Below are positions 8,848 to 63,180 of a DNA stretch of 64,000 nucleotides, one piece after another. Source of the DNA: a virus (Duplodnaviria > Heunggongvirae > Uroviricota > Caudoviricetes); IMG/VR virus record IMGVR_UViG_2576861193_000004, positions 42,259-106,258 of that record; one strand, given 5' to 3'. Below the pieces are notes generated by a model. It was given only the letters and a program-made list of their open reading frames with translations. It did no database searches and was not told the DNA's origin. Each line of letters starts with the position of its first letter. Within the stretch, counting starts at the first letter, position 1. Both the position numbers and the translations under genes were made by a program.

Positions 8848-9681
8848 TTACGCACGGCGAACAATCATACGGTTGTTGATGTAACTGACCAGCAAGCGCC
8901 AGGTGCTACGAGCCACATGCACGTTTGCAGCTTTACCGGTACGGTACATGTTGGTTGTTTCACCGATGGACTCTGACAAAATGCCATCCTCTCGTGCTGC
9001 GGCTACATCATTGCCATTTGCGATCTCACACGCTTCGTTGACAACGGCAAGCATCAACGCTTCTTTGAAGTAGTCAGGGAACTCTTCAAACTTCTCCTGC
9101 GTCATCTTTTCCCAATCGACTAAATCATGCCGGTACGCTCCATCTGCTCCCCACGGAATATCATACACATTCAGCATATTTTGAGGGCGATCGTATCGGT
9201 CAAAGTCGATACGTAGAATTTTGCGGATTGAGAACGGTAAAGTTTTAATTCGTCTGGTAGCCTCAATGAGACGCTTGCGCATTAAGCCTTCACCATCCGA
9301 CAGCAAAGTGTCCCCATTCAGCATATCGATCGCCTGCATTTGAGCATCAGCGACAGTTGCAAACGACTGTTCTGGTATCGACAGTTCAAAACTATTCAGC
9401 AGAACATACATTTGCCGCTCTTCATGCGTCAGACCCGATGCAACAGCCTTCACAATGACGTACCGCAGATCTCGCTCTTTCTCAGAGAGCTGGTTATATT
9501 CAGCCGACACGACAACCGGAATCGACATTTGACCGTTGGTAATTTCTAGCGGCTCGCCATCAACGAGAATAGCCCCGGTGCTGTCCTTTACTGTGTAGGT
9601 GGCAGATTCGATATCCAGCACGTTGAAGGCAAATGAAAGAGAAACAGCTTCACCGCTACGATACGAGTCGATCTGCGCCAT
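8848..9681 (-). CDS. hypothetical structural protein
   Basis: 277 aa ORF between capsid-side and tail-side genes. Confidence 0.35.
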   Translation of the reverse strand: MAQIDSYRSGEAVSLSFAFNVLDIESATYTVKDSTGAILVDGEPLEITNGQMSIPVVVSAEYNQLSEKERDLRYVIVKAVASGLTHEERQMYVLLNSFELSIPEQSFATVADAQMQAIDMLNGDTLLSDGEGLMRKRLIEATRRIKTLPFSIRKILRIDFDRYDRPQNMLNVYDIPWGADGAYRHDLVDWEKMTQEKFEEFPDYFKEALMLAVVNEACEIANGNDVAAAREDGILSESIGETTNMYRTGKAANVHVARSTWRLLVSYINNRMIVRRA

Positions 9682-12963: not shown

Positions 12964-14538
12964 TCACTCGTTCTCTTGAGTAGATGAGTCCCCATTCCCT
13001 CGGGGTTGATCTTGCCCGCTTTCTTGGGCCGCACCACGATCATAAGTAAGTACTGACTTATTTTCAAGGGTATTTAGATCATTTTTTGGAGGAAAATTCA
13101 AGAGATCTTTATCAAATTCCTTTTTCATCGCCTCAGTAATGTTCGGGAAAATCTTCTCAATAAGCATTTCCATCTGGTGACGACGTACAGAGTCCGGTGC
13201 CTGAAGTAATGACAGTTTCTCGGCAACAGAAAATTCATCAGTAAGGCCACGAATATCGAAACTTTCTGGATACGCAATTAAAGAGTGGTCTTCGTCCAGA
13301 TCTACCCCCATCCATTTCGCAACCAGTAGCATGATTTGGCGTTCAGCCCTTTCCAGACGCTCTGCTTTTGTGACAAGCAAGCTATTTACACGCTGGAAGT
13401 CATACATTTTTGCGGCACCAGATGAATTATCGATTCCCTGTGCGTTGTCCTGCTTCGTTCGCTCACCAGCTACACCAACTGAATGGTAGATTTCGTTAAT
13501 CACCGTCTTAATCGTAGTGATGATCATCTGAGCTTGTTTCGGGTCTGGTGACAGATAAAACGGCTGGTTTCCACCTTCAGAATCGTAGGTGAAGACTCGC
13601 TTTGTGCCCATTTCAAGCACTTTAGTGTGGTTTTCATCACCAGGTAAAAGCGACTGTACCGGTATAGCCAACTGGCTAAATGTCTGATCCTGAATAATGG
13701 CATCAAGGTTTGACAGATAGTTTGCAACCGCACGATCAAGATAAGCAATATCATCGATCAACGATGGGCTGAAATACGGTGATTCACTTTCTCCAATACA
13801 ATCAACAGGAAACACAGGAACTACGCCGAGATTATGCGCGCCGCTGTCCTCTAAAATAACTTTTGCCTGACGACGACCTGCTCCACCAGCCCCCTTCTTC
13901 ACTTCCTCACGGAACAGATACCACTCGTTTTGTGTCCACAGACGATAACGTTGGTATTCCTGACCTGTAGAAGTAAAAGGATCTGCGTCATCGCGAGCGA
14001 CTTCCACAATTAACGCCCATAACATATTCCCGTCGTCGTCCCATGCCACATCCAGCATTTGCTGAGGTGAAATCCAGTAGGCGTAGGCGCGAGCATCTTT
14101 CTTTTTCTCGTCAGCTACTGACTCAACATCACCACTCATCGTGCTATCGACAACAACCCATATGCGACCGTAAATAGACGACTGCAAATCAATAGCGGCC
14201 ATAAATGAGTCAATAGAGGCATTCTGGCGAGTCGCACGTTTCCAGAAATTGCGGATCTGCTCTGGTGCCTCTTCGATATTTCTATGAATGTCTTCTTTAA
14301 AGAGATATTTGTTGATGAGGTTTACCACCTCACGAGTGTGGTTGAAGCGATAAGCACGCTCAACTCGCTCCTTAAACTCCTGATCTCCCTCTTTAAAGTA
14401 ACGAAAGATATTGTCTGTAAACCAACCACGCCCGCCAGCGTAAGTGCTGGCGAGGAAGTCCCAATGTTCTTTTTTCTTTTCGTATTCCGGGTGGCGTCGC
14501 GCCACCAGATCCTTAATTTGTTTGTCGTTCAATTCCAT
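12964..14538 (-). CDS. portal protein
   Basis: 524 aa ORF directly downstream of large terminase; size and synteny. Confidence 0.8.
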   Translation of the reverse strand: MELNDKQIKDLVARRHPEYEKKKEHWDFLASTYAGGRGWFTDNIFRYFKEGDQEFKERVERAYRFNHTREVVNLINKYLFKEDIHRNIEEAPEQIRNFWKRATRQNASIDSFMAAIDLQSSIYGRIWVVVDSTMSGDVESVADEKKKDARAYAYWISPQQMLDVAWDDDGNMLWALIVEVARDDADPFTSTGQEYQRYRLWTQNEWYLFREEVKKGAGGAGRRQAKVILEDSGAHNLGVVPVFPVDCIGESESPYFSPSLIDDIAYLDRAVANYLSNLDAIIQDQTFSQLAIPVQSLLPGDENHTKVLEMGTKRVFTYDSEGGNQPFYLSPDPKQAQMIITTIKTVINEIYHSVGVAGERTKQDNAQGIDNSSGAAKMYDFQRVNSLLVTKAERLERAERQIMLLVAKWMGVDLDEDHSLIAYPESFDIRGLTDEFSVAEKLSLLQAPDSVRRHQMEMLIEKIFPNITEAMKKEFDKDLLNFPPKNDLNTLENKSVLTYDRGAAQESGQDQPRGNGDSSTQENE

Positions 14539-14550
14539 TTGAATAACCTT

Positions 14551-14570
14551 AGATAATTACTTACCTATCT
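14551..14570. promoter_or_regulatory. motif-2 palindrome
   Basis: agataattacttacctatct between TerL and portal. Confidence 0.45.
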
Positions 14571-15821
14571 AGAACCACCAAGAATAACACGGTTTTTGAC
14601 TGGATACCTACGATGTACTGGATAGCCCAATGCGTCTGCACTATGCTCAATGCCACCTGTCTTATCCATATCTCGTGTTCCAGGCTTGTAGATGACTTTT
14701 TCCAATGAATCAATCAAATGCTTGCACTTCGGATCGATATACAGCCGGATATCTCCAGATGCGGTCATCAGCATTCGGTTAACAGCATTAACACGATCCG
14801 CAATTGGCGGGTGCTTTTTCGAATAATCGACACGTAAGAATCCCTTCTCTTTGAATATGTCGACGTCAGACTCCCCGCGAGCATGTTGGCGATAAGCACC
14901 TGCCGGATCTGGAAATACCGTTATCTGTGATTTCCAGCGCCAGAAGCGTCTCTCAAGCTCATCACAAACCTCTGCCGTGTTAGAGGAAAAGAGCACCAAT
15001 TCATCAATTGCCCATAGCTCACCATTTGGCTGAGGTTGCAAAATTACTGAAGACATCGGGTCAATGTTGAAGTCCTGCCCTACCCATATAGGCAACCGAG
15101 GGTTGAACTGAAGCGGTTTTACATGCACGTTACGATCGAACGGGTAGTAAACGCGCCCGGACATGTTCTCAAAGCTCGCCAGGTACTCCTGAGCGAACGA
15201 TTTCGGGTCCATATCGTTCTTAGCAGCTTCAATTTCCGCCGTAGGCACAAACGGAGAATCGGCAGTTACAAACTGCCAGCTCTTCCACTGTCCCTTTCTT
15301 TGCAGCTCTACGTTCTGGCCTATAGTCCACAGTTTGTGAAATTCCGAGAAGCCTTTTGGCGTACCAATGATCAGTGCACCGCCGCGTGTCGATGAAAGAG
15401 TAGGTCGTAACACCTTGTACCAGGTGTCAGCCTTCATATCCTGAAATTCATCAAGCACTACAAAATGCAACGCTACGCCGCGCAGAGTGTCAGGCTTATC
15501 AGCACCTTTGAGGGCGATCTCCGAACCGTTCTTCAACACGATTGTCATCGTGGTGTCGTTCTTTTTCCTAACCCACTTACGAGGCAGAACTTCCTGTAGA
15601 TCGTCCCACAAAATCTGGCGAGCCATCTGGTAAGTAGGAGCGACATACCAGACCCTTTGCTTTTTTTCCTTTGCCGCCGCACGAATAATAGTGGAGATCG
15701 ACAACCGGGATTTTCCCCAGCGTCGACCAGCACAAACAACTTTAAATCGATGCGGAGACTGGAAGACTTTCATCTGTCCAGAATGCAGTTGCACAAGACT
15801 GAGCGAGGACGGGATTGCCAT
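14565..15821 (-). CDS. terminase large subunit
   Basis: 418 aa; Walker A VVCAGRRWGKS, Walker B-like VVLDEFQD, C-terminal nuclease-like region; start overlaps stop of TerS-like gene. Confidence 0.85.
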   Translation of the reverse strand: MAIPSSLSLVQLHSGQMKVFQSPHRFKVVCAGRRWGKSRLSISTIIRAAAKEKKQRVWYVAPTYQMARQILWDDLQEVLPRKWVRKKNDTTMTIVLKNGSEIALKGADKPDTLRGVALHFVVLDEFQDMKADTWYKVLRPTLSSTRGGALIIGTPKGFSEFHKLWTIGQNVELQRKGQWKSWQFVTADSPFVPTAEIEAAKNDMDPKSFAQEYLASFENMSGRVYYPFDRNVHVKPLQFNPRLPIWVGQDFNIDPMSSVILQPQPNGELWAIDELVLFSSNTAEVCDELERRFWRWKSQITVFPDPAGAYRQHARGESDVDIFKEKGFLRVDYSKKHPPIADRVNAVNRMLMTASGDIRLYIDPKCKHLIDSLEKVIYKPGTRDMDKTGGIEHSADALGYPVHRRYPVKNRVILGGSR

Positions 15822-16453
15822 TATTCGTCCTCCCCTTCACTTCCATCATCTGTCGCATCAAATTCGCTTAGAGCTTCTTCTTCCAACGTCTCAAGCAATT
15901 CGTCATCGATGATTTCAGGCTCGTCGTCTTCCTGACGTAATTTCGCCACCTGGGAAGGCGTAAGCTCACCAAATACCAGGTTCGGAATTTCTTCCTCGTC
16001 ATTTTCCGCATGATCCATGCCCAATGCTTTGGACGAAACTTCAAAGCATTTTGCAAGGGTATTACTGGCTCTCTGTAAGCTCTTGAGAGAATCCTCAATC
16101 GCCCCTAAAGGCCTACCCTCACGTTTGGCCGTAGTGACTTCGACCATCACCATCTGCCCCAACGCATACGCCCAGCCGTCATAACGTGTACGACGTTCTT
16201 CTATCTTTTCCGCACGGGCTTTAGCGCGAAGCTCTGCGTCAGATTTAAGAGACTCACGAACCATCTTCCCAACAGAGTCCGCGCCTTTCTCTAATCCTCG
16301 CTTTTTGAAATGTCTGGAGAGTGTTTCACGACGAATGCCGTACTCTTCCTCCAGCTTTGAGAGTGTATATTCGCCTGACGTCCATTTGGCTTCAGCTTCG
16401 GCCCACTCCGCTGGTGTCAGGCGAGTTTTTACCTCGTCTTTTTCGACCGTCAT
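15821..16453 (-). CDS. terminase small subunit (putative)
   Basis: 210 aa, N-terminal HTH-like segment (TLSKLEEEYGIRRETLSRHFKKRG), acidic C-terminus, translationally coupled to TerL. Confidence 0.5.
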   Translation of the reverse strand: MTVEKDEVKTRLTPAEWAEAEAKWTSGEYTLSKLEEEYGIRRETLSRHFKKRGLEKGADSVGKMVRESLKSDAELRAKARAEKIEERRTRYDGWAYALGQMVMVEVTTAKREGRPLGAIEDSLKSLQRASNTLAKCFEVSSKALGMDHAENDEEEIPNLVFGELTPSQVAKLRQEDDEPEIIDDELLETLEEEALSEFDATDDGSEGEDE

Positions 16454-16925: not shown

Positions 16926-17816
16926 TTATGCCGGTAAAGCAATTTCTAACGGTTTATCCAAAGGTTGTTTGTCGAATGCCAGCAGTGGCAGCGTGTCAGG
17001 CAGTCGACGACCAAAGTCAGGGTTTCGGTACACACCATACAACGGAGACGTAAAGCTCAGGTTGTGAATGTCCTTGAGCAGCTTCACAATGCTGGCCTCG
17101 TCCACCAGACTGTCGGCAATGTCCTGAATCGTCGTGCCACGATTCCGCCCAGCTTTTGCCAGGGAACTGTTCTTGTGGTAGTCCGCCACCAGATCACGCA
17201 GTGCACGGCGACGACGAGACTCGCTCATTGCGAACAACTCTTTGACGATCGCCTCGTTATCACCAGGGTCGGAACGGAAATGGCGCTGGAATACACGCAG
17301 TGCACTTTCATAGCTCTTCGGTCGCTCAGGGCGGATGAACTTAAACCCTGCTTTCATGGCGAAGGGATTGTATTTGCTCATCGAGGACTGGATCTCAATG
17401 ATTGGCCGGTCATGCATCCTGCTAACCAGGTTAATCATTCGATAAGAGACGCCTACGCCACGATACTGAGTATCCACAACTGAGCGACTGATCACCGCAA
17501 AGTTGTTATTCACGTACCGACCCCAGTACTGGTTAGCCACGGTGGTATTAGTGGTTGGTTTCAACTTAGGAAACATGCGGTGGCGAGGTGCCAGCAGTAG
17601 TTTCGGGTAAGCCATAACCACGACGCCCACCAGACGGTCATCAAGTTCGCAGCGATAGTAAGTTGGCGCGAAAGGTTTGCCGTCTGTTTTGTAGTGAAGC
17701 GACTTAAGAGCGTGCCAGTCCTCTACAGTTCCCTTTGTGACAGTCATTCGCTCCAGAAAGTCCAGATGACGCGGAAACTCTTCAGGGCGGTAGCGTTTAA
17801 TGATGATGTCCGTCAT
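16926..17816 (-). CDS. GNAT-fold acetyltransferase-like protein with long C-terminal extension
   Basis: 296 aa; acetyl-CoA motif-A-like QYRGVGVS and motif-B-like NPFAMKAGFKF; 4-nt overlap with upstream ATPase gene. Confidence 0.45.
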   Translation of the reverse strand: MTDIIIKRYRPEEFPRHLDFLERMTVTKGTVEDWHALKSLHYKTDGKPFAPTYYRCELDDRLVGVVVMAYPKLLLAPRHRMFPKLKPTTNTTVANQYWGRYVNNNFAVISRSVVDTQYRGVGVSYRMINLVSRMHDRPIIEIQSSMSKYNPFAMKAGFKFIRPERPKSYESALRVFQRHFRSDPGDNEAIVKELFAMSESRRRRALRDLVADYHKNSSLAKAGRNRGTTIQDIADSLVDEASIVKLLKDIHNLSFTSPLYGVYRNPDFGRRLPDTLPLLAFDKQPLDKPLEIALPA

Positions 17817-18478
17817 AAATGAACCTCATCATGACTACCATTGTGATATTCCACCTTCACGCGTTCTTTGTAGTGCTTGGTGATCTGCATATCCGGGCGC
17901 AGCGCGTTCTTCAGGTCTTCGTGAGTCGTCGCCACCATTACCGTCGCACCAACCTTTCGAGCGGCACGCTGGAGGTTAGATGCCACAACCTGAGCGGTTA
18001 CACGGTCTAGAACAGCACCGAACTCGTCAGCAGCCCACACTTTAGCGCCTGACTCAATCAGTTTGGCAATCTTGAGACGATATTTCTGACCGTCTGACAT
18101 TTCAGAAGGCTTGCGAACAAACAGATATGCATCGTTCAGACCAGCCATAGATAACAACCCAAGCGCATCGCTGGTCGTTTTGCCCAACTGATCGATGACG
18201 TTAACCTCATTATCGAAGGTAAAATCATCGATGGAGGCTACAGACAGCCCTTCATCCTTCATCTGTCGTTGCAACTCGCGCAGCACAACGGATTTGCCGG
18301 AACCGGATTGGCCGGTGATGTACACCACATCGCCCTGCTTCACTTCCAGCTCCAGATTGTCGTAAAGCGTCCACTCTTTTTCGTCCAGGCCAAGCCCGAA
18401 CGACTCAGCGATTTCCAACGTGCGCGTGGTTTTATTTACGCGTGTCTGAAACGATACGTTGATGATGTATTTGCTCAT
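17813..18478 (-). CDS. stand-alone ABC-type ATPase
   Basis: 221 aa; Walker A GQSGSGKS, signature-like LSDGQKYR, Walker B VWAADEF, H-loop TTHE; no transmembrane domain. Confidence 0.7.
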   Translation of the reverse strand: MSKYIINVSFQTRVNKTTRTLEIAESFGLGLDEKEWTLYDNLELEVKQGDVVYITGQSGSGKSVVLRELQRQMKDEGLSVASIDDFTFDNEVNVIDQLGKTTSDALGLLSMAGLNDAYLFVRKPSEMSDGQKYRLKIAKLIESGAKVWAADEFGAVLDRVTAQVVASNLQRAARKVGATVMVATTHEDLKNALRPDMQITKHYKERVKVEYHNGSHDEVHL

Positions 18479-19143
18479 GCAGCCATCTCCCCGGAAGAGA
18501 TCTTCTCCGCATATGCCACAAATGCGTCTACACCGCTTTCTCCCGTCATTTCTTCCATATGGGCAAGCAAATCACCAACAACAATGGCAGAGCCAGCAGG
18601 GAGCGTTTTAAAGCCCAATACGTCGACAACACGTACTTCTTCCGCTGCAACTTCATGACTGATCTCGGTGTGTTCATCCTTCTGTCGTTTAGTTTCTTCG
18701 CCAAGATCGATAACTAGCGAGTCGGTGTCCATTTCTTCTGTCATGCTGCCAACGAGAACATTCAACTCACGCTCTTCAAAGCCGAAAACCTCGATATCGT
18801 CCAGAACAAGCGACTCAAGCTCTTTCTGTAGCTTAATTGCATCGTAATCAATGCTGGCAAGTCGGTTATCTTCAAGACGCTTCGCACGAACCTCGTCATC
18901 ACTGAGATCATCGCGAACAATAACCGGTACGCGCTCAAGTCCAGCAAAAATTGCAGCCTCACGGCGGCCGTGGCCAGTAATAATTACGTCGTTCTTATCG
19001 ACCGTAATTGGCTGGTCAAATCCGCGCTTTTTAATGGCTGCGGCCAGATCTCGGATCTGCTGTTCATCATGCTTTTTGGCATTCATCTCATAGGGAATAA
19101 GATCTGCCGGGTCGCGATATACGATTTCAAACTTTTTGGTCAT
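18475..19143 (-). CDS. ParB/Srx-fold (ParB-like nuclease domain) protein
   Basis: Start set at ATG 19141-19143 (TAATG overlap with upstream stop); ParB-box-like IITGHGRREAA. Confidence 0.6.
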   Translation of the reverse strand: MTKKFEIVYRDPADLIPYEMNAKKHDEQQIRDLAAAIKKRGFDQPITVDKNDVIITGHGRREAAIFAGLERVPVIVRDDLSDDEVRAKRLEDNRLASIDYDAIKLQKELESLVLDDIEVFGFEERELNVLVGSMTEEMDTDSLVIDLGEETKRQKDEHTEISHEVAAEEVRVVDVLGFKTLPAGSAIVVGDLLAHMEEMTGESGVDAFVAYAEKISSGEMAA

Positions 19144-19841
19144 TACATACGCTCCTTGTAGTAGTCGACCAGCCACACCAGAGCCTCACCAGCGTTTTCC
19201 ATTTCATTGCCAGTATTAATTGCCTGGTCTTTGATGATGTTTTTTATGGTTTCTGCAACGCGATCTGACGCATCGAAAGTTACTTTGAAGCGCATGGTCT
19301 GATGTTCCGCACCGACACGTTCGGTTTTCTCTCGTTTGTCGGTATCGACAGGCTCATCACTACCACGAGACAACGCCTCCAGTGCTTCAAGGTCGATTGC
19401 CGCCTCTTTTGCTAAAACCATCGAGATTTCGTCGTCATACGGGGCGATTTCAGACAGTTGATAGTCAAGTTCTGACTGAATTTCTTCAATGAAGCGCTGC
19501 AATGCGATTTGGTCGTCTTCACCGTATCGCTCGTTGTCCACCAGTGACATCTGTTTAGCTACGACATCGCTAATTTTGCCCACAGAAAGCACCGGAACCG
19601 TTGAAATTCCTTGCTCAATAGCAGCACGCCAGCGATGTTCGCCGCCGAGGATTTCAAAAAATCCATCTTCAAGTTCACGAGCCAAAATTGGCTTAAAAAA
19701 GCCCAATTTTTCGATAGAACCTTTCAGTTTTTCAAAATTCTGCGCACCAACCGAATTGGTGTTCCAGGTATTCGGGCGAAGGTTGGCAACATCAACCTGC
19801 AAAATCGTGATTTTTACATCCATTTTATTGCTACAATCCAC
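19143..19841 (-). CDS. ParB/Srx-fold (ParB-like nuclease domain) protein
   Basis: 232 aa; ParB box II-like ILGGEHRWRAA; first gene of operon, motif-2 palindrome just upstream. Confidence 0.6.
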   Translation of the reverse strand: MDCSNKMDVKITILQVDVANLRPNTWNTNSVGAQNFEKLKGSIEKLGFFKPILARELEDGFFEILGGEHRWRAAIEQGISTVPVLSVGKISDVVAKQMSLVDNERYGEDDQIALQRFIEEIQSELDYQLSEIAPYDDEISMVLAKEAAIDLEALEALSRGSDEPVDTDKREKTERVGAEHQTMRFKVTFDASDRVAETIKNIIKDQAINTGNEMENAGEALVWLVDYYKERM

Positions 19842-23012: not shown

Positions 23013-23627
23013 TTGGATTATCATGATATGAAAATGAAACTTTCGTTACTCCTTGCTTGTATATACCTCCCGGCGTTTCCCGCCAACGCATTATCAGATT
23101 TCGTCTCTGACATGCAAAAAACGTACAGCATGTTTACCTCCGAAGACGTAGTAGAATACAAATCACGAGGTCTGAATCAGCCAGTTTGGTTCAGATTCTC
23201 AGACAACGCAGAAGAAACAATACTTAATGGAGGAAAAGAAAGATTACGGTTGCAAATTAACGGGACCGCTGTACCAGAAAACGTTAATGTAAGCTCTGAC
23301 GAAGCCATGAAGCCATCTGGAATTGTTTTAGAAGTTCAAGACGGCACACTTTACTGTGATGAAATGGCTACAACAGGTTGCCAAGTAAACATTAGGGTTG
23401 GCAATGAAGAGCCTATCGTTACTTACGCCAAGGCTGAAGGGAATACAAGTGGAAAGGTATTGTTTATCGATGAAAATATCTCAAAACGTATCGTTCGTGA
23501 CATACAGAAAACAGCTAACTCTAAATCCGTCGATAAAAAAATCTATGTTGAGGTTCCCTTCTTTGTCGTTGGTAACAAAGAATTTAAATTTGGGTTGCTG
23601 AAAACACCTCTAAGAGTATCAGAATGA
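23013..23627 (+). CDS. hypothetical secreted protein (Sec signal peptide)
   Basis: N-terminus MKMKLSLLLACIYLPAFPANA with AxA cleavage-like site; start abuts previous stop. Confidence 0.35.
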   Translation: MDYHDMKMKLSLLLACIYLPAFPANALSDFVSDMQKTYSMFTSEDVVEYKSRGLNQPVWFRFSDNAEETILNGGKERLRLQINGTAVPENVNVSSDEAMKPSGIVLEVQDGTLYCDEMATTGCQVNIRVGNEEPIVTYAKAEGNTSGKVLFIDENISKRIVRDIQKTANSKSVDKKIYVEVPFFVVGNKEFKFGLLKTPLRVSE

Positions 23628-24148
23628 GAACATTGGACATCACCTACGGCATACCGGCTGAAGTCTGGCCGCGAGACTACGAACATGCTGAGAACATACT
23701 TATGTTCTGGCGGAAGAACAACATTCCTGTAAGAGTCACGCTTGAAGACGGTCAGGTGTTTTGCATGTACGTTCAGGGGACAATGCCTTCACGCAATAAG
23801 CTAGATTTATGCCCGATTCCATATGATAAAGAAAATCGTATAAGACTCCCACTTGAGCGCATTAGCACAATTGAATCAGGTGTAATCGATGGCATTGCTC
23901 GCGAGTTCAAAGGTAGGCTAACAATACATCCAGACTATGTTGACAATCAGCCATCACGCCGTGACTTTTTTGCGATATGTCGCAAGGCTTATCAAAACGA
24001 CCAATCTATAAGGGTCTACATGACAGACGGTCGTGAAATAGAAGGGGTGTCAAGAGGCGTTGATGCTTGCCAGGTCACTCTTAAGTTAGAAGACGGCAGA
24101 AAAATACTTGTTTTCTTCGATTGGGTTGAACGAATCCTTCCATTTTAA
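23624..24148 (+). CDS. hypothetical protein
   Basis: 174 aa; 4-nt overlap with upstream gene; followed by hairpin terminator. Confidence 0.3.
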   Translation: MRTLDITYGIPAEVWPRDYEHAENILMFWRKNNIPVRVTLEDGQVFCMYVQGTMPSRNKLDLCPIPYDKENRIRLPLERISTIESGVIDGIAREFKGRLTIHPDYVDNQPSRRDFFAICRKAYQNDQSIRVYMTDGREIEGVSRGVDACQVTLKLEDGRKILVFFDWVERILPF

Positions 24149-24370: not shown

Positions 24371-24443
24371 GAACTCGTCGAAAGCGAGCTGGCTAACGAC
24401 AGTAAAAATAAATTCATTTTAATTTTTCGTAAGGATGTCCATC

Positions 24444-25094
24444 ATGGCTAACATTATCATTTCTAAAAAGTCCATCATTGAAGCTGCTGCCATTGTATCC
24501 GACGAGCTGCGCGAAAAAGCAGATCTGGCAACTCAAACATATAACGAACATTATAAAAATGGTACGCACACAAAAGCAGACAAAGCAAACATGCAAGCTG
24601 CGACCACTAAACTTGCTTACTTCATCAACAACGTTGTGAACGCAGTAGAAGACGAAAAATTATGCTCTGTTTTCTACTATGCGATTAAAGCAAGCAAACA
24701 AGCGCCAGAAGTATTTTTCCGTGATGCAATGACTAATAGTTATTCTCTGGAAAAACTGGTTTATCTGGTTAAATCAATTAAATCTGGTAAATGCGTTTAC
24801 TCCATCGCTGATATGTCTGGATCTCGTGTATTCGCTTTAATCGATATGATTAACGACGAGATCGACACGTTCACCAATGGCGCTGTTTTCGATTTAATGA
24901 ATGAAGCTAAAAAAGCGTGCGAAATTAAATTGGACGCTGGCTATACTCAAGCCAACCAGTTGATCAATCTTTGCGAACGTCTTGGACTTGTTGAGAAAGT
25001 CAAAGGAATGGGAAGCGCAAAAGCTGGTACGCAGCAATATCGCTTTATTAAAAATGATTTCTATAACTATCTGGCTGATGCTTTCAAAGCGTAA
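24444..25094 (+). CDS. hypothetical protein (stand-alone, own promoter and terminator)
   Basis: Start set at MANIIISKK with RBS AAGGA; 217 aa; no family recognised. Confidence 0.35.
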   Translation: MANIIISKKSIIEAAAIVSDELREKADLATQTYNEHYKNGTHTKADKANMQAATTKLAYFINNVVNAVEDEKLCSVFYYAIKASKQAPEVFFRDAMTNSYSLEKLVYLVKSIKSGKCVYSIADMSGSRVFALIDMINDEIDTFTNGAVFDLMNEAKKACEIKLDAGYTQANQLINLCERLGLVEKVKGMGSAKAGTQQYRFIKNDFYNYLADAFKA

Positions 25095-25401: not shown

Positions 25402-25860
25402 CGTTTCCAATACTCCCACCATAACGCGCCATCATTGGCGCGTTTTTTATTGTCTTTAACTCGCTCCAACAACATAAAAATAAGCACCAAAATAACGCCA
25501 TAGACGCGCTTTTATATCCTTGTCAGTACATACCCATTACTTAACACATTAACGCGCTTAAAACGCGTTATATTGCGCTATAGAGTATGGTTAATCATTG
25601 GCTTTTAGTCTTGCTATGTGATCCGCGTTTATTTGTCGGCGCGGATCGGCTCTTTGTGTTGTTTTGTATCCGCTCGCGTATTATGTGCGCGTGATTTTTC
25701 ACATAATCACACCACTTAATCACATATGTGATTACGCTACGAAAGAAATCTGGATGTCTCAGGCGACGAAAGTCATCATAATTTTCCCCGCTCACCTGTC
25801 CGACAACCGCTGGTTGGATTCCACCAGCTTCCCGATGTTTTTTCTACATAAAGGCGAATG

Positions 25861-25981
25861 CAGCCGTTTCCCGAAAAAATCCTGGCCGTTTCCCGTCGGC
25901 TCATGAATGCGTTCCTCGCCGTTTCTGAAAATTTCCCTGCGGCAGCTGGTGGCTATAGAGAAAGGGCCGTTTCTGGCCCTC
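25861..25981 (+). repeat. iteron-like direct repeat array (4 copies, GCCGTTTC core)
   Basis: cagccgtttcccgaaaaaa / tggccgtttcccgtcgg / tcgccgtttctgaaaat / gggccgtttctggccc at roughly 21-27 bp spacing. Confidence 0.5.
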
Positions 25982-25988
25982 TTCTCAG

Positions 25989-26471
25989 TTACACGCCATC
26001 AAGGATGTGGATGCGGTTGCTTGCGTATACATTCAGCATAAAGTTAGCGCAAAACAGTTTCCATGTATCAACGCCAGCGGTATACGTAATGTTTTTGCAT
26101 TTAATTGCATTGTTGGCGATCCGCATCCCCTGCGATACTGCTTCATCGTCGGAAAATTTGAACGACGATTGAGTTTTAATCCAGACAGAAATCTGCGTAG
26201 CGAACTCAATCAGCTTGGACTGGCAGAATCGCCCGGAGCGCACCGGAAAGACGAACGTTCCGAATCCAGAATTTACCACATACGCTTTCTCAAATACCCG
26301 CGAGTAACGACGATTGCCAATGATGTCGCGTGCAATAATGCATTTTTCTTGTGCTGACAGTTCTACCGTCTCATTGTCGCGCCATGCACCAAGTACTCGT
26401 TTTTCAATGTCAGAGAACGTTACAGCGATATTGCCATGTGCGGGTGCGTTTACAGTAGCGATAAAATTCAT
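25989..26471 (-). CDS. hypothetical protein
   Basis: 160 aa; motif-1 palindrome 20 bp upstream of start. Confidence 0.3.
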   Translation of the reverse strand: MNFIATVNAPAHGNIAVTFSDIEKRVLGAWRDNETVELSAQEKCIIARDIIGNRRYSRVFEKAYVVNSGFGTFVFPVRSGRFCQSKLIEFATQISVWIKTQSSFKFSDDEAVSQGMRIANNAIKCKNITYTAGVDTWKLFCANFMLNVYASNRIHILDGV

Positions 26472-26490
26472 GATTAATTCCTTATCGTAA

Positions 26491-26508
26491 ATAACAAATT
26501 GTTTTCTT
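26491..26508. promoter_or_regulatory. motif-1 palindrome
   Basis: ataacaaattgttttctt, 20 bp upstream of start at 26471. Confidence 0.5.
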
Positions 26509-26821
26509 GTTGGTGTTAATTATCGTTGTACGAATAAGGCGTCAAAGTGGAAAGTTGCGGTAGCCGGACGGGAACAGGTGGGTTTGTCGGTTGCCTGGAG
26601 GTAAGAGGTTGGTGTTTTTAGCCTGCGGGAAACAGGATGGTCATTTAAGGCCACCAATGCTGATGGCCTTAATAATTATCGCCCTATTACGCTAAGGATC
26701 TTTTCCTCAACTGATTTGTTGTTGCGACTAAACTGCCTTGCGTATCTGATGACAGAAGAGGCGTTTTGCTTTCTGACCAATTCGACTCTTTCCTTCAGGG
26801 TTTTCTTGAAATCGCCCATAT

Positions 26822-27196
26822 TTACCACCAGGCGCAGAAGGTCAGTCTGTTATTGTGAAAGTCGTGGTTCCTGATCAGGTCTTCCACAAGTTTTTTCAGC
26901 TTATCCACGTCATGCCAGTAACCTTCGTCGTACTCCTGACTGCCGAAGAAAAAACCTTCCCGAGTAGGCAAGTACTCTTCGCAATTGCTTTCGTTTATGT
27001 GCATCAAATGAGCTTTCAGAAGACAAATGTCATTCATCGTTAATTCTAAAAGCTCACAATTTTCGACTTCACCTACGTTGCGCTCCATCCACCCAACGAG
27101 CGCATTGAACTTACGGAAGTAAGCAACCTGCTTTCTGGATGCCTCGTTATTCAGATCGTTTTTAGGCTGTGTCTCGATATAGATATCAAGTCCCAT
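26822..27196 (-). CDS. hypothetical acidic protein
   Basis: Start set at MGLDIYIE with RBS AAGGAAACC; motif-1 palindrome upstream; possible 46-aa coupled ORF downstream (about 26684-26821). Confidence 0.3.
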   Translation of the reverse strand: MGLDIYIETQPKNDLNNEASRKQVAYFRKFNALVGWMERNVGEVENCELLELTMNDICLLKAHLMHINESNCEEYLPTREGFFFGSQEYDEGYWHDVDKLKKLVEDLIRNHDFHNNRLTFCAWW

Positions 27197-27252
27197 GATG
27201 GTTTCCTTATTAAGTTGCTTCAGTGAAATCATTTTCACAAATCAGATAAGGC

Positions 27253-27268
27253 AGAAAACAAATTGTTA
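27253..27268. promoter_or_regulatory. motif-1 palindrome
   Basis: agaaaacaaattgtta. Confidence 0.5.
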
Positions 27269-27313
27269 TCGGGCATAATAAAATGGCGCGGTTTACGCGC
27301 CATTTAAAGAGGA

Positions 27314-27709
27314 TTAAGCGAATACGCTTTCAGGGATTAAGGTGTCGGCAGGAATGCCAGAGGTAATGCGCAGACCGTACTGGCCAATCCAGGTGGTGCT
27401 GGTGTTCAGGCTGGAGGCGAATACGGTGTTAACCATATTCATCATGGTTTCAAACACCTCTTCATCAACCTGGCGGAAGTAGTTCTCGATTTTCAGCAGC
27501 AGCGGGTCAGTTGCATCGAGAATGGACTGGTATTGAGTCGCGTACTCGCCGCCGGAGGCATCACCTTTACGCACGATCGTACTGGCCTGGACTTCGGCAC
27601 CAGTTTCGGTGTTGTACGTAACAACGGTAATTTTTGCCACATTCTTACCTTCGGCGGTTTCAGAGGCATAGTAAACATCAACTGTCAGTTTTTCGCGTTT
27701 AACGGTCAT
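27314..27709 (-). CDS. hypothetical protein
   Basis: Start set at MTVKREKL with RBS GGAGAG; motif-2 palindrome upstream. Confidence 0.3.
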   Translation of the reverse strand: MTVKREKLTVDVYYASETAEGKNVAKITVVTYNTETGAEVQASTIVRKGDASGGEYATQYQSILDATDPLLLKIENYFRQVDEEVFETMMNMVNTVFASSLNTSTTWIGQYGLRITSGIPADTLIPESVFA

Positions 27710-27775
27710 TTCACTCTCCGTAGTGTCTTGGTTATTTTTATATTCTATGATCGTAAGTATGTACTTACAATACAA

Positions 27776-27805
27776 AAAAGCCCCGTAAGGATGGCGGGGC
27801 TGTCG
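27776..27805 (-). terminator. rho-independent terminator
   Basis: Minus strand agccccgccatccttacggggct followed by tttttg. Confidence 0.5.
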
Positions 27806-27835
27806 TACGGTCGACTAATTACCACTTGCACATTA

Positions 27836-28147
27836 TCAGGCTATTGCCATCACTGATGCTCTCTGAATCTCTTGCTGGGCCACGCGGTTAACTTCCATCA
27901 AAGCCAGTTCGAGCTGATGTTCCGGCCACATTCTTTGAAATGCCACCCAGCCTTTTCCACGCTGGCGACGAACATTCATTACATAACGAGTAAAGGTGTT
28001 TTTATCGAAAGACACCGCTGTTTCACGGAACAGACGAATAGAGGTTCCATTGGCAACGATGTCCAGCAAAGTTAATTGAGCAACCAGCGCAGGCTTCTCT
28101 TTTCTCTTCTGGTCTTTGTCCAGACCAAGAACCAATGATTTTTTCAT
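27836..28147 (-). CDS. hypothetical basic protein
   Basis: Start set at MKKSLVLGL; motif-1 palindrome immediately upstream. Confidence 0.3.
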   Translation of the reverse strand: MKKSLVLGLDKDQKRKEKPALVAQLTLLDIVANGTSIRLFRETAVSFDKNTFTRYVMNVRRQRGKGWVAFQRMWPEHQLELALMEVNRVAQQEIQRASVMAIA

Positions 28148-28157
28148 CACAACTCCG

Positions 28158-28174
28158 TAAACAACTTGTTTTCT
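28158..28174. promoter_or_regulatory. motif-1 palindrome
   Basis: taaacaacttgttttct preceded by caactccg. Confidence 0.5.
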
Positions 28175-28300
28175 CAATGGCGTAAATAATACCAGTAAGA
28201 AAACGGCTACAAAGCATATTGATCAGGTGCATGAGCGATATGCAGGTTCTTCCCTGCGGCTATAGAGAAATTAAGCCAGCAATGCTGGCTTTGGTTGGGG

Positions 28301-28630
28301 TTACTCGAATACTTCAAGAAACTCCTGAACGTCCCAATGCTGGACGAGGTGAAGATAGACCTTAGAAATCACGTCATTTTCGCTATCGCATGTGAAGTAG
28401 TACTTCTGGCTGCGGTTGTATGTGTCCACACAAAATTCGCTCATATCCATAAAGTCAGCATCTTCACCCATGTCGCAAATCATCAAAGCAGGTGCGTCAT
28501 CACGAGTCATCAGCTCCAGCACCCATCTTGAATTAATCAGAGTGGAAGACCAACCTTCCAGCTCATAGAACTGGTCAAACTCTTTTTGAGTCAATTTCTT
28601 GATTTGGTTGATGTCGATATTTGCAAACAT
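28301..28630 (-). CDS. hypothetical small acidic protein
   Basis: Start set at MFANIDINQ with RBS AAGGA; Asp/Glu-rich; motif-1 palindrome in 5' UTR. Confidence 0.3.
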   Translation of the reverse strand: MFANIDINQIKKLTQKEFDQFYELEGWSSTLINSRWVLELMTRDDAPALMICDMGEDADFMDMSEFCVDTYNRSQKYYFTCDSENDVISKVYLHLVQHWDVQEFLEVFE

Positions 28631-28642
28631 AAAGCAATCCTT

Positions 28643-28658
28643 AAACAACATGTTTTCT
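28643..28658. promoter_or_regulatory. motif-1 palindrome
   Basis: aaacaacatgttttct in 5' UTR of 28301-28630. Confidence 0.5.
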
Positions 28659-28991
28659 TGATGGTGTTATTATCGCAATAACGCACAGGCGAAAAAGGAT
28701 TTTATTCCGGTGAATGTGGTTTTGGCAGTGAGTTTTCAGGTTCAGTACCGAGTACACTTTTTACATTATTCTGATTTAGTGGCCGAAGGTGGCTGGTGGG
28801 CAGAATAATCATCTCCCCGAAAACCTACTGAAATCGATTGTGACCCGCTGACTGTCTGGCACAATTACGCTGTAGTTGGGCATTCAGAGGGAATCCAGCG
28901 GTAAGTAAGTTCGCCTGCACGTGAGCGCCTCTCTTCTTCCCGCACATTACAGGTGGGTAGCCGCAACTCTCCCTATCGCTATACCGGTACG

Positions 28992-29129
28992 CCGCCGTTC
29001 CTGAACCGGCATCGAGCCTTTTCCCGAAATCCACACAGGCAACTCGACCGTTTCCCTGAAAACCTCCAGCCGTTCCCCGAAGGCAACCCAGCCGTTTCTG
29101 TAGCGGGATGCAGCCTTTTCCCTGTATGG
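28992..29129 (+). repeat. iteron-like direct repeat array (6 copies, GCC(G/T)TT(T)CC core)
   Basis: cgccgttcctgaa / gagccttttcccgaaat / cgaccgtttccctgaaaac / cagccgttccccgaagg / cagccgtttctgtagc / cagccttttccctgtat at about 22 bp spacing; same family as array at 25861-25981. Confidence 0.5.
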
Positions 29130-29229
29130 ACCTAAGGCTGACCGTAGGGGTGTTACGGGGGATAAAATCAGGAGTTGATTAAATACGAAAAAGGAGGCGA
29201 CACCCCTCCTTCCCTCCCCACTTATACAT

Positions 29230-29995
29230 ACCTGTCTTGTTCGCTATACATGTTGTGTTTTCTTCGTGTTTTATCTGTCTCAACCTCTCTATAGGCGTTA
29301 ATGCTCACTCCTTCCAGAATGTTCTATACGGCGACTATTTCTGTTGGTGAATTGGGTGTGTTGTTTTCTCTGTCGGTGTATGTGGTTTCGTTCGTTTTGC
29401 GGTGGTTCTTCTATGGGGTGTTCTCGTCGTTTTGGTGATTGTTCTTCTCCGTGTATGGAGTAATGGCAGGTGGGCGATTCCTTTCGTTATTGTGTTTGAG
29501 TTGTTTGTCTGGAGTGTGAAAGGCTTTTGTAGTTATTCGTGTATTGGGTAATGGCGTTTCCCGTGATTGTTATGTTTCGTGTCTTTTGGGATTGAGAGAA
29601 ACCTTGCGGTTACAGGCTTCGTTGGGGTTTCAGTGATTCTGGTGTTTCTTCGCTGTTTGGGTAATGGCGTGTCGTGGGTATCGCGCGTATGAATGTTTTC
29701 GGATTGCCTGTGAAAGTTAGGTTGGTTGTCCGGTAGCCTGGGGAGAAGAGGTGGGTCTTTTCGGTAGCCTGCCATAAAGAGGTTGGTTGTTTTGGGGAAT
29801 GGCATGTGTGTTATTTAGTTGTTTTGTTATGCCTGAAAATAAGTTGTTTATATGGTTGTGTAACGCAACGGGAACGATTTTGAGCGTGTGTTTTTGTTGG
29901 TGGTGTGTTGGGTCGTCTGTGGTGAAAATTGGACGCTGTGGCGCTGTCTGCTGCGTAGAATTACGGGTATAAGAAGTGATGTGTGAATACGTCAA
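29230..29995 (+). other. ORF-free tract with extreme G+T strand bias (C+A-rich on minus strand)
   Basis: Plus strand almost devoid of A and C over about 0.75 kb; only low-complexity ORFs on minus strand; contains CGGTAGCCTG..AGAGGTKGGT motif also present at 26555-26620. Confidence 0.5.
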
Positions 29996-30192
29996 TTTTT
30001 TAGACCAAATCGGGTGAAAGCGTTGACGTTTCGTTGATCTGTTATTCAGTTGTTTTCTTATTGGTATAAACAACGTTAACCTATTGATATTTAAAGGTGT
30101 GATTGCAGGTATGGAAGGAGAGTAGTGGCGATCAACAGATTCTTATAGAAAAGAATCAAATTGTGACCGCCATTATCAATAAGTTGCAACCG

Positions 30193-30762
30193 TTAGTTGT
30201 TCAGATAAACATTTGGAACACGGACGTAGAAGTTCCTGTCGCCGGTAAGTTCCAGAGTAATGTTAATGTCATTACCATTGTCTAGTGTAGCCGTTGCTCT
30301 ATAGAACTTATCCGTCACCTTGTCCTCTATTGTCACCTTCATACATTTTGGTGCAGTCGAACCGTTATTCTCTTTCAGAATAGTTGTCACGAGAGGGCAG
30401 GCTGCTTCTTCAAGAGCAACCTCGTCCTTGTGTGGGATGCCGATGAAGATAATCCAAGCCAGCGACGCAACGATTATGATAAATGGCACTCTGCTGCCTT
30501 TTGTAATAGTCGCGCGCTTCCAGAGATAGACAGGCAGGAGGAATACCCCCCATAGAATTGAAGGTGGTTCACAGCCAGACTCCGATAGAGCCATTCTGTC
30601 AGCTACTAACAAACCGATGGTAGTTACACCCCCAATTATAATAGCGTAATTGGTATACTCTTCCGGCGATACTCCAAAGAAGAAAGGCATGAACGCTAGA
30701 ATCCACGCATAAATGTTATTCAGAGGTTTTGTTTGTTGGTTCTGGGTTTCCATCACATCCAT
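30193..30762 (-). CDS. hypothetical membrane protein (N-terminal TM helices + C-terminal soluble domain)
   Basis: Hydrophobic segments IYAWILAFMPFFFGV, AIIIGGVTTIGLLVA, ILWGVFLLPVYLW, FIIIVASLAWIIFIGI. Confidence 0.35.
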   Translation of the reverse strand: MDVMETQNQQTKPLNNIYAWILAFMPFFFGVSPEEYTNYAIIIGGVTTIGLLVADRMALSESGCEPPSILWGVFLLPVYLWKRATITKGSRVPFIIIVASLAWIIFIGIPHKDEVALEEAACPLVTTILKENNGSTAPKCMKVTIEDKVTDKFYRATATLDNGNDINITLELTGDRNFYVRVPNVYLNN

Positions 30763-61460: not shown

Positions 61461-61677
61461 TTATTCACAGGCCCGATCCAATATTTAGATCCCCAGAGAG
61501 ATCCTACAGAAGATCAAAAGAGATCCCAGATCGTCTCCAGCGCTTGCGGTTACTGGCTTGAGAAGGGGTTACTATCCACTATAGGGAGCAAAATAACCAC
61601 TGTAGAGAGCATAATAACCGCTATGAAGAGCAAAACAACCTCTCTGGAGAGTAGTCGGTATCCACTGTAGTGAGTAG
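61461..61677 (+). promoter_or_regulatory. origin-like region copy 1: DnaA box, GATC cluster, iterons
   Basis: TTATTCACA (61461-61469); six GATC within about 70 bp (61475-61542); then 4-5 iterons with core CCACTRTAGRGAG (61571-61677). Confidence 0.6.
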
Positions 61678-61844
61678 GAGACAATGTTTTAACTGGATAA
61701 CTCCGAGCCTGTTTTTCTGCGGCAGATGGCTGATATTCTTGGAAATATTGTAAATTTTGCGCTGCGGCGTGTTTATTTCGATCACACATTATCCCCAGAA
61801 GGGGAGTGATGCCTGATTTTGTAATTATCTGATTTTTATACACA

Positions 61845-62075
61845 GGCCCGATCCAGTAATTCAGATCCCTGTTAGAACCAAAGAGAACCACAAAGACCCA
61901 AAGAGATCCCCGGCCCCTGCAAACCGTTGTGCCACATGGCTTTAGAGGTTATCGATATCCACTATAGTGAGAATAACAACCACTATAGAGAGTAAATCAA
62001 CCACTATGGAGAGTAGAAAAACCGCTGTAGGCGGTAGGATAACCACTGTGATGGGTGCTACTATCCACTGTAATC
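61845..62075 (+). promoter_or_regulatory. origin-like region copy 2: DnaA box, GATC sites, iterons upstream of repA
   Basis: TTATACACA (61845-61853) followed by cacaggcccgatccagtaattcagatccc (near-copy of 61466-61492), then 5 iterons (61955-62075). Confidence 0.6.
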
Positions 62076-62117
62076 AGTAAAGGCACCCAAGCCGTCGAAT
62101 AAAAAGAGACATTTGGA

Positions 62118-63173
62118 ATGAGCGTAAACGACAATAAAAACATTGCGATAAGCGAAGCATTTTCCGAAACAGACAAAAAGACCGGCGAAGTTGTTACGTT
62201 AGTTCCTAACACCAACAACACAGTTCAGCCTGTTGCTCTGATGCGTCTTGGTCTCTTCGTTCCGACGCTGAAATCGACATCCAGGGGTAGAAAGGGGCAA
62301 ATGGTCTCTATGGACGCCTCCGCTGAACTCAAACAGCTGTCTCTGGCCAAAGCCGAAGGGTACGAGGATATAAGGATTGCTGGTCTTCGTCTTGATATGG
62401 ATAACGATTTCAAAACATGGGTGGGCATCATCCACGCGTTCGCCAAGCACAAGGTTGTTGGTGACACCGTCACGTTGCCGTTCGTCGAGTTCGTCAGACT
62501 TTGTGGCATACCAACAGCCAGATCGTCCGCGAAGTTACGTAAGCGCCTGGACAGCTCTCTAAGTCGTATCGCCACAAACACCATCTCATTCCGCAGCAAA
62601 GGCTCTGAAGAGTATTACGTTACGCACCTTGTGCAGACGGCAAAGTACAGTACCAAGAATGACACGGTCGAACTGAAGGCCGATCCTAAGATTTTCGAAC
62701 TTTACCAGTTCGACAAAAAGGTGCTTTTGCAACTTCGGGCCATCAACGAACTCTCCAGAAAGGAATCCGCGCAGGCGCTCTACACCTTCATTGAAAGTTT
62801 GCCACCAGACCCGGCGCCAATCTCATTGGCTCGCTTACGCGCCAGACTTAACTTAACCAGCCGTACCATTACCCAGAATGCGACAGTCAGGAAGGCGATG
62901 GAGCAACTGCGAGAGATCGGCTATCTCGATTACACTGAAGTGAAACGCGGCAGCTCGGTCTACTTCGTCATCCACTATAGACGGCCGAAGTTACGTTCGG
63001 CACTGCCGCCATCTATGGCCACGCCTGAAGATCCAGAAGATATCTTGTCAGGTGATGATCCGGAGGACATTATCGATGTTGCTCCTGAAGAAAAAGACGG
63101 GGAAATGGTCATGTTGAGCAAGGAAGAACTGGCGATTCTCGAAGAGCTGCGCAAGGCAAAGGCTCGCAAATAG
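62118..63173 (+). CDS. repA: iteron-binding plasmid replication initiator RepA (P1/RepFIB type)
   Basis: 351 aa; [62 protein letters not shown]; flanked by iteron arrays. Confidence 0.75.
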
Positions 63174-63180
63174 CCCAACC

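Follow-up and report, generated by a model that had tools for sequence, protein, structure and literature searches.

Two phased repeat arrays and a gene-free, strand-asymmetric block in SSU5/pHCM2-type phage-plasmids: a possible lytic origin region

The DNA analyzed here, called the window below, is a stretch of 64,000 nucleotides (IMG/VR record IMGVR_UViG_2576861193_000004, positions 42,259 to 106,258) from an SSU5/pHCM2-type phage-plasmid of Escherichia coli. The whole genome comprises about 110 kb; the remaining ~49 kb were read from the sister plasmid L015. The region 25500-30200 of the window is 97-99% identical to the E. coli phage-plasmid Cyrano (pLF82), to p15ODDR and pECOH89, and to about 180 further E. 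coli plasmids, and it has more distant kin in Salmonella phage SSU5, in pHCM2 and in plasmids of Klebsiella, Enterobacter, Citrobacter, and Cronobacter. Two arrays of a short direct repeat lie in this region, 3.1 kb apart and in identical orientation, with six small minus-strand genes between them. Array 2 forms the left edge of a gene-free block of ~1.2 kb (28.99-30.18 kb), and the gene for a protein, p219, lies to the left of array 1. The features are listed in Table 1.

The core of the repeat, GCC(G/T)TTTCC(C), is on the plus strand in all units and occurs in only two clusters in the ~110-kb genome. The 9-mer GCCGTTTCC, with at most one mismatch, has 27 matches in the window, against 14.2 +/- 3.6 expected from 100 dinucleotide shuffles, none of which reached 27; nine of the 27 sit in two short plus-strand clusters. 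By arithmetic from the shuffles, about 0.016 matches are expected per 140 nt of one strand, and five in one stretch are far beyond chance. The unit at 28994 has two mismatches to GCCGTTTCC and was added as an extension of array 2. A scan with a position weight matrix over the window and the rest of the sister genome found no further cluster of the core. The two arrays of one repeat family about 3 kb apart, described in an initial annotation of this DNA made from the letters alone, are thus real. The repeats of the plasmid initiator gene repA (TATCCACTGTAGTGAG) are unrelated to them, in keeping with its claim of a second, distinct array locus.

The unit itself is shorter than was first proposed. 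In 61 distinct units from ten genomes, the informative core comprises ~10-12 nt, (CC)nGCC(G/T)TTTCC(C), and is conserved, whereas the remainder of the 22-bp unit, with its CGAAAA tail, is variable. The reported spacing near two helical turns recurs as 22 bp (22, 31, 22, 22, and 22 in array 2), but array 1 is not uniform (22, 33, and 48). Spacings of 22 and 31-34 bp equal two and three helical turns, and both arrays contain at least three helically phased direct repeats in one orientation, as iteron-type origins do. We rejected the possibility, raised in the initial annotation, that the repeats reflect the coding periodicity of a real gene, because a period of 22 is not a multiple of 3 and the open reading frames (ORFs) over the arrays and the adjoining GT-rich stretch differ in frame and length among relatives. 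In nearly all of the hundreds of RefSeq records listed, no feature is annotated over the arrays or the block. The covariance models of Rfam 15, applied at the gathering score, had no match anywhere in the window, and we found no description of the arrays or of the GT-rich stretch in the searchable literature.

Table 1. Positions of the repeat arrays, the gene-free block, and other features in the window
Feature	Position	Strand	Remarks
Array 1	25860..25945	+	units 25863, 25885, 25918 (spacing 22, 33); core GCCGTTTCC/T; plus half-unit AATTTCCCTGCGGC
Fourth core copy of array 1	25966-25974		48 after the 25918 unit; inside terminator loop
Array 2	28991..29130	+	units 28994, 29016, 29047, 29069, 29091, 29113; GC 59%
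Junction of array 2 and GT-rich stretch	29134..29226		conserved; good minus-strand terminator-like hairpin 29214-29188 in the E. coli lineage
GT-rich stretch (minus strand CA-rich)	29230..29960	+	gene-free, ~0.75 kb; only such stretch in the genome
Four GGGTAATGGCG boxes, (T/G)GrGTAATGGC(G/A)	starts 29459, 29547, 29660, 29795 (29459..29804)	+	all on one strand
Motif-2 pair 2	29731..29789	+	31 bp apart; among the best conserved segments of the block
Right-hand conserved control segment	29815..30075		operator-like palindrome at 29838, degenerate one at ~30045-30060
Inverted TTGAC -35-like hexamers	29988-29993, 30021-30026	-, +	in the right-hand control segment
Motif-2 pair 1	26558..26615	+	CGGTAGCC..AGGTGGGT twice, 30 bp apart
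Intrinsic-terminator hairpin of gene 25989-26471	25960..25985	-	AGGGCC-GTTTCT-GGCCCT, then T-run
Chi octamer GCTGGTGG	25945..25952	+	directly after array 1
p219 (phrog_1513)	24435-25094	+	~770 bp left of array 1
Six small genes	25989-26471 (p160), 26676-26828, 26822-27238, 27314-27712, 27836-28150, 28301-28633	-	
GAAAACAAnTTGTTTTC palindrome sites	16495, 16520, 26493, 27257, 28160, 28644, 29838, 31451, 31502, 45025, 45754		plus four in L015
Tail, head, and terminase genes	0.3-16.4 kb		
TerL	14565-15821		
Putative TerS	15821-16453		
Two ParB_N proteins and ABC-type ATPase	16.9-19.8 kb		ParB_N pair 18475-19841
UvsW-like helicase	19.9-21.5 kb		
(G/A)TAAGTAnnTACTTAC(C)TAT palindrome sites	1053, 7552, 11127, 13043, 14550, 16588, 19842, 27754, 46646, 47846, 48229, 48900, 53744, 53898, 55023, 60450		

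The four copies first counted in array 1 become three clean units and a copy at 25966, because the latter lies in the loop of a terminator. This hairpin was read by eye and was not reported by the consensus terminator scan; the hallmarks of an intrinsic terminator are present, namely a GC-rich hairpin, a T-run, a position directly past the stop at 25989, and a covarying stem. The stem is GGGCC/GGCCC in E. coli versus GGGGC/GCCCC in SSU5, pMT1, and Klebsiella, and the loop keeps CGTTTCC. The unit at 25966 is thus a terminator and also, possibly, an array site.

The Chi octamer beside array 1 is kept in most relatives as Chi or as a 7/8 variant (GTTGGTGG, ACTGGTGG, GATGGTGG). A second Chi (28792-28799, plus strand) lies ~200 bp left of array 2. 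We considered and dismissed a clustering of Chi sites or a recombination hotspot: their density is ordinary, with 15 per 64 kb, and local conservation is seen only at the Chi beside array 1. To the left of array 1, the intergenic stretch 25560-25840 is specific to the E. coli lineage and not conserved in SSU5 or Klebsiella. Terminator-like hairpins are present on the plus strand at 25423-25444 and 25619-25661, and a perfect 16-bp palindrome, AATCACATATGTGATT, at ~25720-25735; the stretch may encode a small RNA or an operator.

Across 13 diverse relatives, column identity over ~28985-30180, which includes array 2, is 0.6-0.9, above that of the flanking genes. The plus strand of ~29230-29960 is composed of 14% A, 14% C, 31% G, and 41% T (~72% G+T), and over 29350-29950 the GC skew is +0.43 to +0.50 and the AT skew -0.38 to -0.59. 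The same strand asymmetry recurs in the distant relatives pCAV1335-118, L017, L138, L139, and L143. GT-rich sequence had been reported after each array; it is extreme after array 2, but mild and short after array 1 (~26350-26800, GC skew ~+0.2). The GGGTAATGGCG boxes are present in 3-6 copies at matching positions in relatives. In L143, GGATTGACGTG boxes (14230-14360) apparently replace them while the array core and motif-2 are kept, which suggests that boxes and arrays are read by different factors. Folding of the two strands of the GT-rich stretch gave z = -2.3 (minus) and +1.2 (plus) with 20 shuffles, no strong sign of selected structure. At the junction with array 2, the sequence is conserved in SSU5 and Klebsiella but the hairpin is only weak there, and we therefore do not regard a terminator at this place as a family-wide structure. 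Promoters in the right-hand control segment were assigned by eye; the consensus scan called none.

The second motif, which the initial annotation described as shared by both loci, forms two tandem pairs (26558/26588 and 29731/29762; CGGTWGCCTG..AGAGGTKGGT, motif-2) and has no other site in the genome. Pair 1 is located just upstream of the TTGACG -35 hexamer (26544-26539, minus strand) in the promoter of gene 25989-26471. A module of motif-2 pair, ~0.5 kb, hairpin, and array is seen at both loci and has much the same size in each: motif-2 lies 640 bp (locus 1) and 618 bp (locus 2) from the last clean unit. The 0.5 kb is occupied by gene p160 at locus 1 and by the GT-rich stretch at locus 2.

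The initial annotation would have been contradicted by arrays that are not conserved in related elements; place, orientation, unit number, and spacing are kept across ~700-840 plasmids and phages. The array 1 segment (~25840-25980) is ~80% identical in SSU5 and 74-77% in Klebsiella phages, and the sequence to its left is not conserved. From array 2 onward, ~1.2 kb can be aligned, with 67% identity in SSU5 and 72% in Klebsiella phages. Most of the relatives that we retrieved carry both arrays at the matching place, with matching orientation and spacings. Array 1 is spaced 22 and then 33-34 in most of them (SSU5, pHCM2, pMT1, Citrobacter, Enterobacter, Cronobacter); in Klebsiella relatives only its first two units reach the scan threshold. 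Array 2 is spaced 22, 31, 22, 22, 22 in the group of SSU5, pHCM2, Enterobacter, and Citrobacter, although single units miss the threshold in some records. Up to six units, spaced as in SSU5, pHCM2, and Enterobacter, are also present in a divergent plasmid of E. coli. The Klebsiella/Cronobacter group has three units spaced 22, 22. In every record, array 2 is followed by a gene-free gap of ~1.4-1.6 kb. The CCGTTTCC core is found at both positions even in the distant pCAV1335-118, where the neighboring protein is 33% identical and the spacing is altered, in L138 and L139 (p219 homolog 54-61% identical), and in L143 (32% identical; cores at 9035-9245 and 13660-13880).

Array 2 has matches in 696 plasmid records and the GT-rich stretch in 839. 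Yersinia is not among the genera listed for either set, each of which includes one genus without a name; p160, by contrast, is found in 55 plasmids of Yersinia. In Yersinia pestis pMT1, p219 is retained along with array 1, p160, and a single motif-2 copy, beyond which IS1541 and a rearrangement follow; array 2 and the GT-rich stretch are missing. Neither array 2 nor the block is therefore required for the plasmid to replicate and be inherited.

The six small genes between the arrays form separate transcription units, each with a terminator and shared promoter-proximal sequence. They match PHROGs families lacking a function and have no Pfam matches. Relatives differ in the genes found here, whereas the arrays are constant. 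The structure model of p160 is confident and has no structural neighbor, and sequence searches with p160 against PDB, Pfam, and NCBIfam gave nothing significant. The promoter-proximal sequence of the small genes includes the palindrome AACAAnTTGTT (at 26493, 27257, 28160, and 28644). As GAAAACAAnTTGTTTTC, this dispersed palindrome has ~15 promoter-proximal sites genome-wide, just downstream of -10-like boxes of minus-strand units; these sites are probably the operator set of one repressor, i.e., an early regulon.

We identified p219 as the best candidate for a protein that binds the arrays. It is 82-97% identical across the family, versus 65-80% for p160, and is among the most conserved proteins of the region. 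Its AlphaFold2 model (predicted local distance difference test score 83.8) has long N-terminal helices and a C-terminal helix-strand-helix-helix-strand-strand order, a winged-helix domain, whose closest structural neighbors include ArsR/MarR/PadR-type regulators and also TubR and AspA. The putative recognition helix, DAGYTQANQLINL (D-x-G-Y/F-T-Q-x-N/D-Q), is nearly invariant in members that are 31-33% identical overall, and its constancy parallels that of the array core. Covariation of p219 and the core in distant relatives was considered; both are conserved, and so this is co-conservation only. The family has 23 representatives among 1.84 billion proteins. Sequence searches with p219 (PDB, Pfam, NCBIfam) gave nothing significant, and its structure had only generic winged helix-turn-helix matches in BFVD (E > 0.1).

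Expression was taken from published transcriptomes of LF82, a lysogen of Cyrano (97% identical), given as log2(5+FPKM) (fragments per kilobase per million mapped reads) with a floor of 2.32; the strand-specificity of the library is not stated. CYRAN_103, an ORF annotated in the right part of the block (window 29717-30073), has 0 FPKM and is at the floor in lysogeny broth (LB), and p219 (CYRAN_113) is near the floor. Low to moderate signal is seen for p160 and some other small genes. The description of the arrays as bracketing early small genes is right in its anatomy; several of these putatively early genes are read at low to moderate levels in the lysogen.

We scanned IMG/VR for two cores 22 bp apart and recovered SSU5-like loci and lambdoid prophages (L022, L035, L042, L060, L083, L132). 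In the latter, four to six ATTCGGCnnnnnnGCCGTTTCC units, preceded by three GATCTGT 13-mer-like repeats, lie inside a gene for 320-366 aa whose relatives are annotated as 'DNA replication protein O'; an origin inside gene O is the classical lambda arrangement. GCCGTTTCC at 22-bp spacing thus does act as an origin iteron elsewhere, in lambdoid phages. The lambdoid iterons resemble the window arrays in being direct repeats of one orientation, spaced ~22 bp, with the GCCGTTTCC 9-mer in each unit. In contrast to the window arrays, which are intergenic, they lie inside the initiator gene and are accompanied by an inverted element, ATTCGGC...GCCGAAT, and by the GATCTGT repeats, which the window arrays lack.

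Two direct-orientation clusters of one repeat family, kilobases apart, are also found in ori and crr of P4, oriR and incA of P1, and oriS and incC of F. The iteron clusters of P1 and F flank the rep gene, and those of P4 are bound by the alpha primase-helicase; here, however, the arrays flank six small genes, and no such initiator is adjacent. The element's own RepA replicon (Rep3/IncFIB-type) likewise has iteron arrays on both sides of its gene, but with the unrelated repeat TATCCACTGTAGTGAG, a recognizable Rep3 initiator, and a role in replication of the plasmid state. Phased direct repeats in two clusters are further known from the centromeres R1 parC, pB171 parC1/parC2, and tubC, the last bound by the winged-helix protein TubR; unlike these, the arrays have no partition ATPase or GTPase operon beside them, and array 2 is dispensable in pMT1.

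The arrays have a core in one orientation and helical spacing, and they are duplicated, unique in the genome, and deeply preserved; this is the typical look of phased binding-site arrays. We infer from it that a protein binds them, which protein this may be, and what they do. In the reading that we favor, with a probability of about 0.35, they are phased docking sites for a phage DNA-binding protein and form a lytic-origin region with a satellite array; the initial annotation had tentatively suggested a lytic origin. The arrays would be clusters of same-orientation sites for one sequence-specific protein encoded by the element, and because the unit spacings equal whole helical turns, the proteins would line up along the same side of the helix, possibly in a cooperative nucleoprotein complex. 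Array 2, the 0.75-kb GT-rich stretch with its four boxes, and the promoter-like right segment under repressor control would together make up the region of vegetative replication: an initiator would bind array 2, the GT-rich stretch would be the zone that is opened and primed, and nearby transcription would be switched on upon relief of prophage repression. For array 1 we envisage a satellite role: this cluster would pair with the same protein or titrate it, much as crr does in P4 and incA and incC do in P1 and F. The protein could be p219.

A lytic-origin role is favored because an origin for vegetative replication distinct from the RepA replicon is needed, no second such locus exists in the genome, the plasmid-only pMT1 does without it, and the block (judged by its right part) is silent in lysogeny; the likeness to lambdoid origins points the same way. 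A separate vegetative origin is expected because the RepA replicon is separate and the element encodes DnaE, a DnaB-like helicase, a ligase, and the UvsW-like helicase. The probability is put no higher because an AT-rich unwinding element, sites for DnaA and integration host factor (IHF), and a recognizable initiator are all missing.

Several results weigh against this reading. A nearest-neighbor stability scan found no outstanding AT-rich unstable segment beside either array; the closest segment of low stability, 30036-30095, ranks 18 in the window and is ~900 bp from array 2, and relatives do not share the 13-mer of GATCTGT type seen at 30036. No DnaA box of the TTATCCACA type lies within ~150 bp of the arrays, the only ones in 25.4-30.3 kb being at 25695 and 26901. 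There are no conserved IHF sites (consensus matches at 30089 and 30174 are not kept in relatives) and no GATC clusters. The neighboring proteins had no match to the Rep, O, or DnaD families in Pfam, NCBIfam, or PHROGs, a profile comparison of p219 with RepA showed no relationship, and the genome encodes no homolog of the lambdoid O-type initiator. The cumulative GC skew of the composite genome has no V-shape and follows gene orientation, and the replisome genes are in the other half of the genome. Some cores in L143 are only 6-8 bp apart, so a strict 22-bp iteron geometry is not universal. The lambdoid resemblance extends only to the architecture and the 9-mer, and it is partly circular, because the 9-mer was itself the search pattern, and pMT1, which keeps array 1, p160, and p219, is nevertheless not known as an active phage.

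The main rival, with which the absence of origin hallmarks agrees, is a role in early gene control or insulation, which we consider possible but on the whole doubtful. An early regulator such as p219 would then use the arrays as multi-site operators or enhancer-like platforms. Proteins bound there, and perhaps also on the motif-2 pairs at a distance of ~620-640 bp, would bracket the 3-kb cassette or draw it into a loop and so set its expression at the switch between lysis and lysogeny. The six single-gene units with shared promoter and operator sequences between the arrays, the twofold module with its distances of 640 and 618 bp, the motif-2 pair directly upstream of a -35 hexamer, and the ArsR/MarR/PadR-type regulators among the neighbors of the p219 winged helix all fit such control. 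However, both arrays lie downstream of terminators and not at promoters, a different dispersed palindrome already resembles the operator of these promoters, and the genes between the arrays vary among relatives while the arrays do not; the 0.75-kb GT-rich stretch would be left unexplained. That stretch is the center of another explanation, which we judge unlikely: an unstructured, CA-rich RNA of ~650 nt, transcribed from the minus strand (~29845 to the hairpin 29214-29188) with four GCCAUUACCC boxes, would soak up an RNA-binding protein as a sponge, provide it with a scaffold, or load Rho very strongly, and the arrays would be accessory DNA elements past terminators. The predicted minus-strand RNA is A+C-rich, G-poor, and unusually unstructured (-121 kcal/mol for 776 nt), its boxes are conserved and on one strand, the strand asymmetry is kept even in distant relatives, and in this lineage the stretch has a terminator-like hairpin on its left and, on its right, promoter-like segments together with palindromes that resemble operators. 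But it matches no Rfam family, no transcription is seen in the lysogen, SSU5 and Klebsiella show no clear structural conservation of the hairpin, the consensus scan called none of the promoters, and the arrays themselves would have no explanation.

In centromeres of types Ib, II, and III, direct repeats typically form arrays in two clusters. Binding of the arrays by an orphan ParB_N protein (18475-19841) or by a small partition adaptor, for segregation or compaction of the element, would have precedents in the paired arrays parC1/parC2 of pB171 and in tubC with its winged-helix TubR. This two-cluster layout, the two ParB_N proteins and the ABC-type ATPase ~6 kb away that are kept in all relatives, the presence of TubR and AspA among the structural neighbors of p219, and the retention of array 1 by pMT1 are consistent with a centromere. 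Yet no ParA/ParB operon is adjacent, canonical ParB sites are palindromic and not direct repeats, and array 2 is dispensable in pMT1, a stably inherited plasmid that retains array 1. Because p219 is essentially unexpressed in the lysogen, a maintenance role for it is also argued against, and we regard a centromere or ParB-loading site as distinctly unlikely. Very improbable is a packaging (pac) site to which the small subunit of terminase would bind. Clustered short repeats do make up some pac and cosB sites (lambda cosB, SPP1 pac, P1 pac), and a role in the lytic cycle only would fit the loss from pMT1; however, pac and cos sites are normally in or beside the small-terminase gene, and here the terminase genes (14565-16453) are ~9.4 kb from array 1. 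The database records of related phages do not begin near the arrays, and two copies in direct orientation would not be needed for packaging.

Returning to the lytic-origin reading, the GT-rich stretch may, as a conjecture, substitute for an unwinding and priming zone. In its most specific form, about which we are decidedly doubtful, 28.99-30.18 kb would be a vegetative origin of a new design for the phage's DnaE/DnaB-type replisome. The orphan winged-helix protein p219 would be the initiator on the array; the 0.75-kb G+T-rich zone with its four oriented boxes, instead of an AT-rich DNA unwinding element and DnaA boxes, would direct strand-specific opening, priming, or R-loops; and the second array, 3.1 kb away, would be a partner in cis. 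Phased repeat arrays are well known as a kind; what is unusual is to find them together with an orphan winged-helix protein and a large block that is both conserved and strand-asymmetric.

Phage-plasmids of the SSU5/pHCM2/pKpn type are widespread in gut bacteria and spread resistance genes, and ~800 plasmids in PLSDB, common in clinical Escherichia, Klebsiella, Salmonella, Enterobacter, and Cronobacter, carry the locus. The two arrays, four boxes, and two motif-2 pairs define a compact set of cis elements with p219 as a candidate trans factor. If they do form a lytic origin, they would offer a handle for copy-number control, for engineering or curing, and for typing of these elements; if not, a 1.2-kb non-coding block that is conserved above its neighboring genes still needs to be explained.

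Further genes of the window encode an FljA-like protein, MetRS (methionyl-tRNA synthetase), a type I restriction-modification system, SbcCD-like proteins, and the Rep3-family RepA with its own iterons; the remaining part of the genome, in the sister plasmid, encodes an integrase in addition to DnaE, the DnaB-like helicase, and the ligase. The repA iterons, (C/A)TATCCACTGTAGTGAG, are present in at least 18 copies on both sides of repA at 61.57-63.78 kb (61572-63777), and one downstream set (63385-63777) is inverted. Upstream of repA is a 383-bp duplication (61554-61654 versus 61937-62037). The repA region is only ~80% identical to p15ODDR, which is 98-99% identical elsewhere, and this suggests replicon swapping.

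The interval between the terminase genes and the UvsW-like helicase contains a cluster of four minus-strand genes (16926-19841) for the two ParB_N-domain proteins, the ABC-type ATPase, and a protein of 296 aa; relatives as far removed as the most distant ones retain the cluster. Another family of dispersed palindromes, (G/A)TAAGTAnnTACTTAC(C)TAT, has ~16 sites, mostly intergenic and AT-rich, which may mark a middle or late promoter class or a second operator set. The FljA-like protein (23624-24148, plus strand) matches PF03614, 'repressor of phase-1 flagellin', with E = 9e-81, and its residues 123-165 have a weak Hfq-like match. It is conserved across all relatives, its gene shows clear expression in the lysogen of Cyrano, and it may be a lysogenic-conversion factor that acts on the flagellin mRNA of the host.

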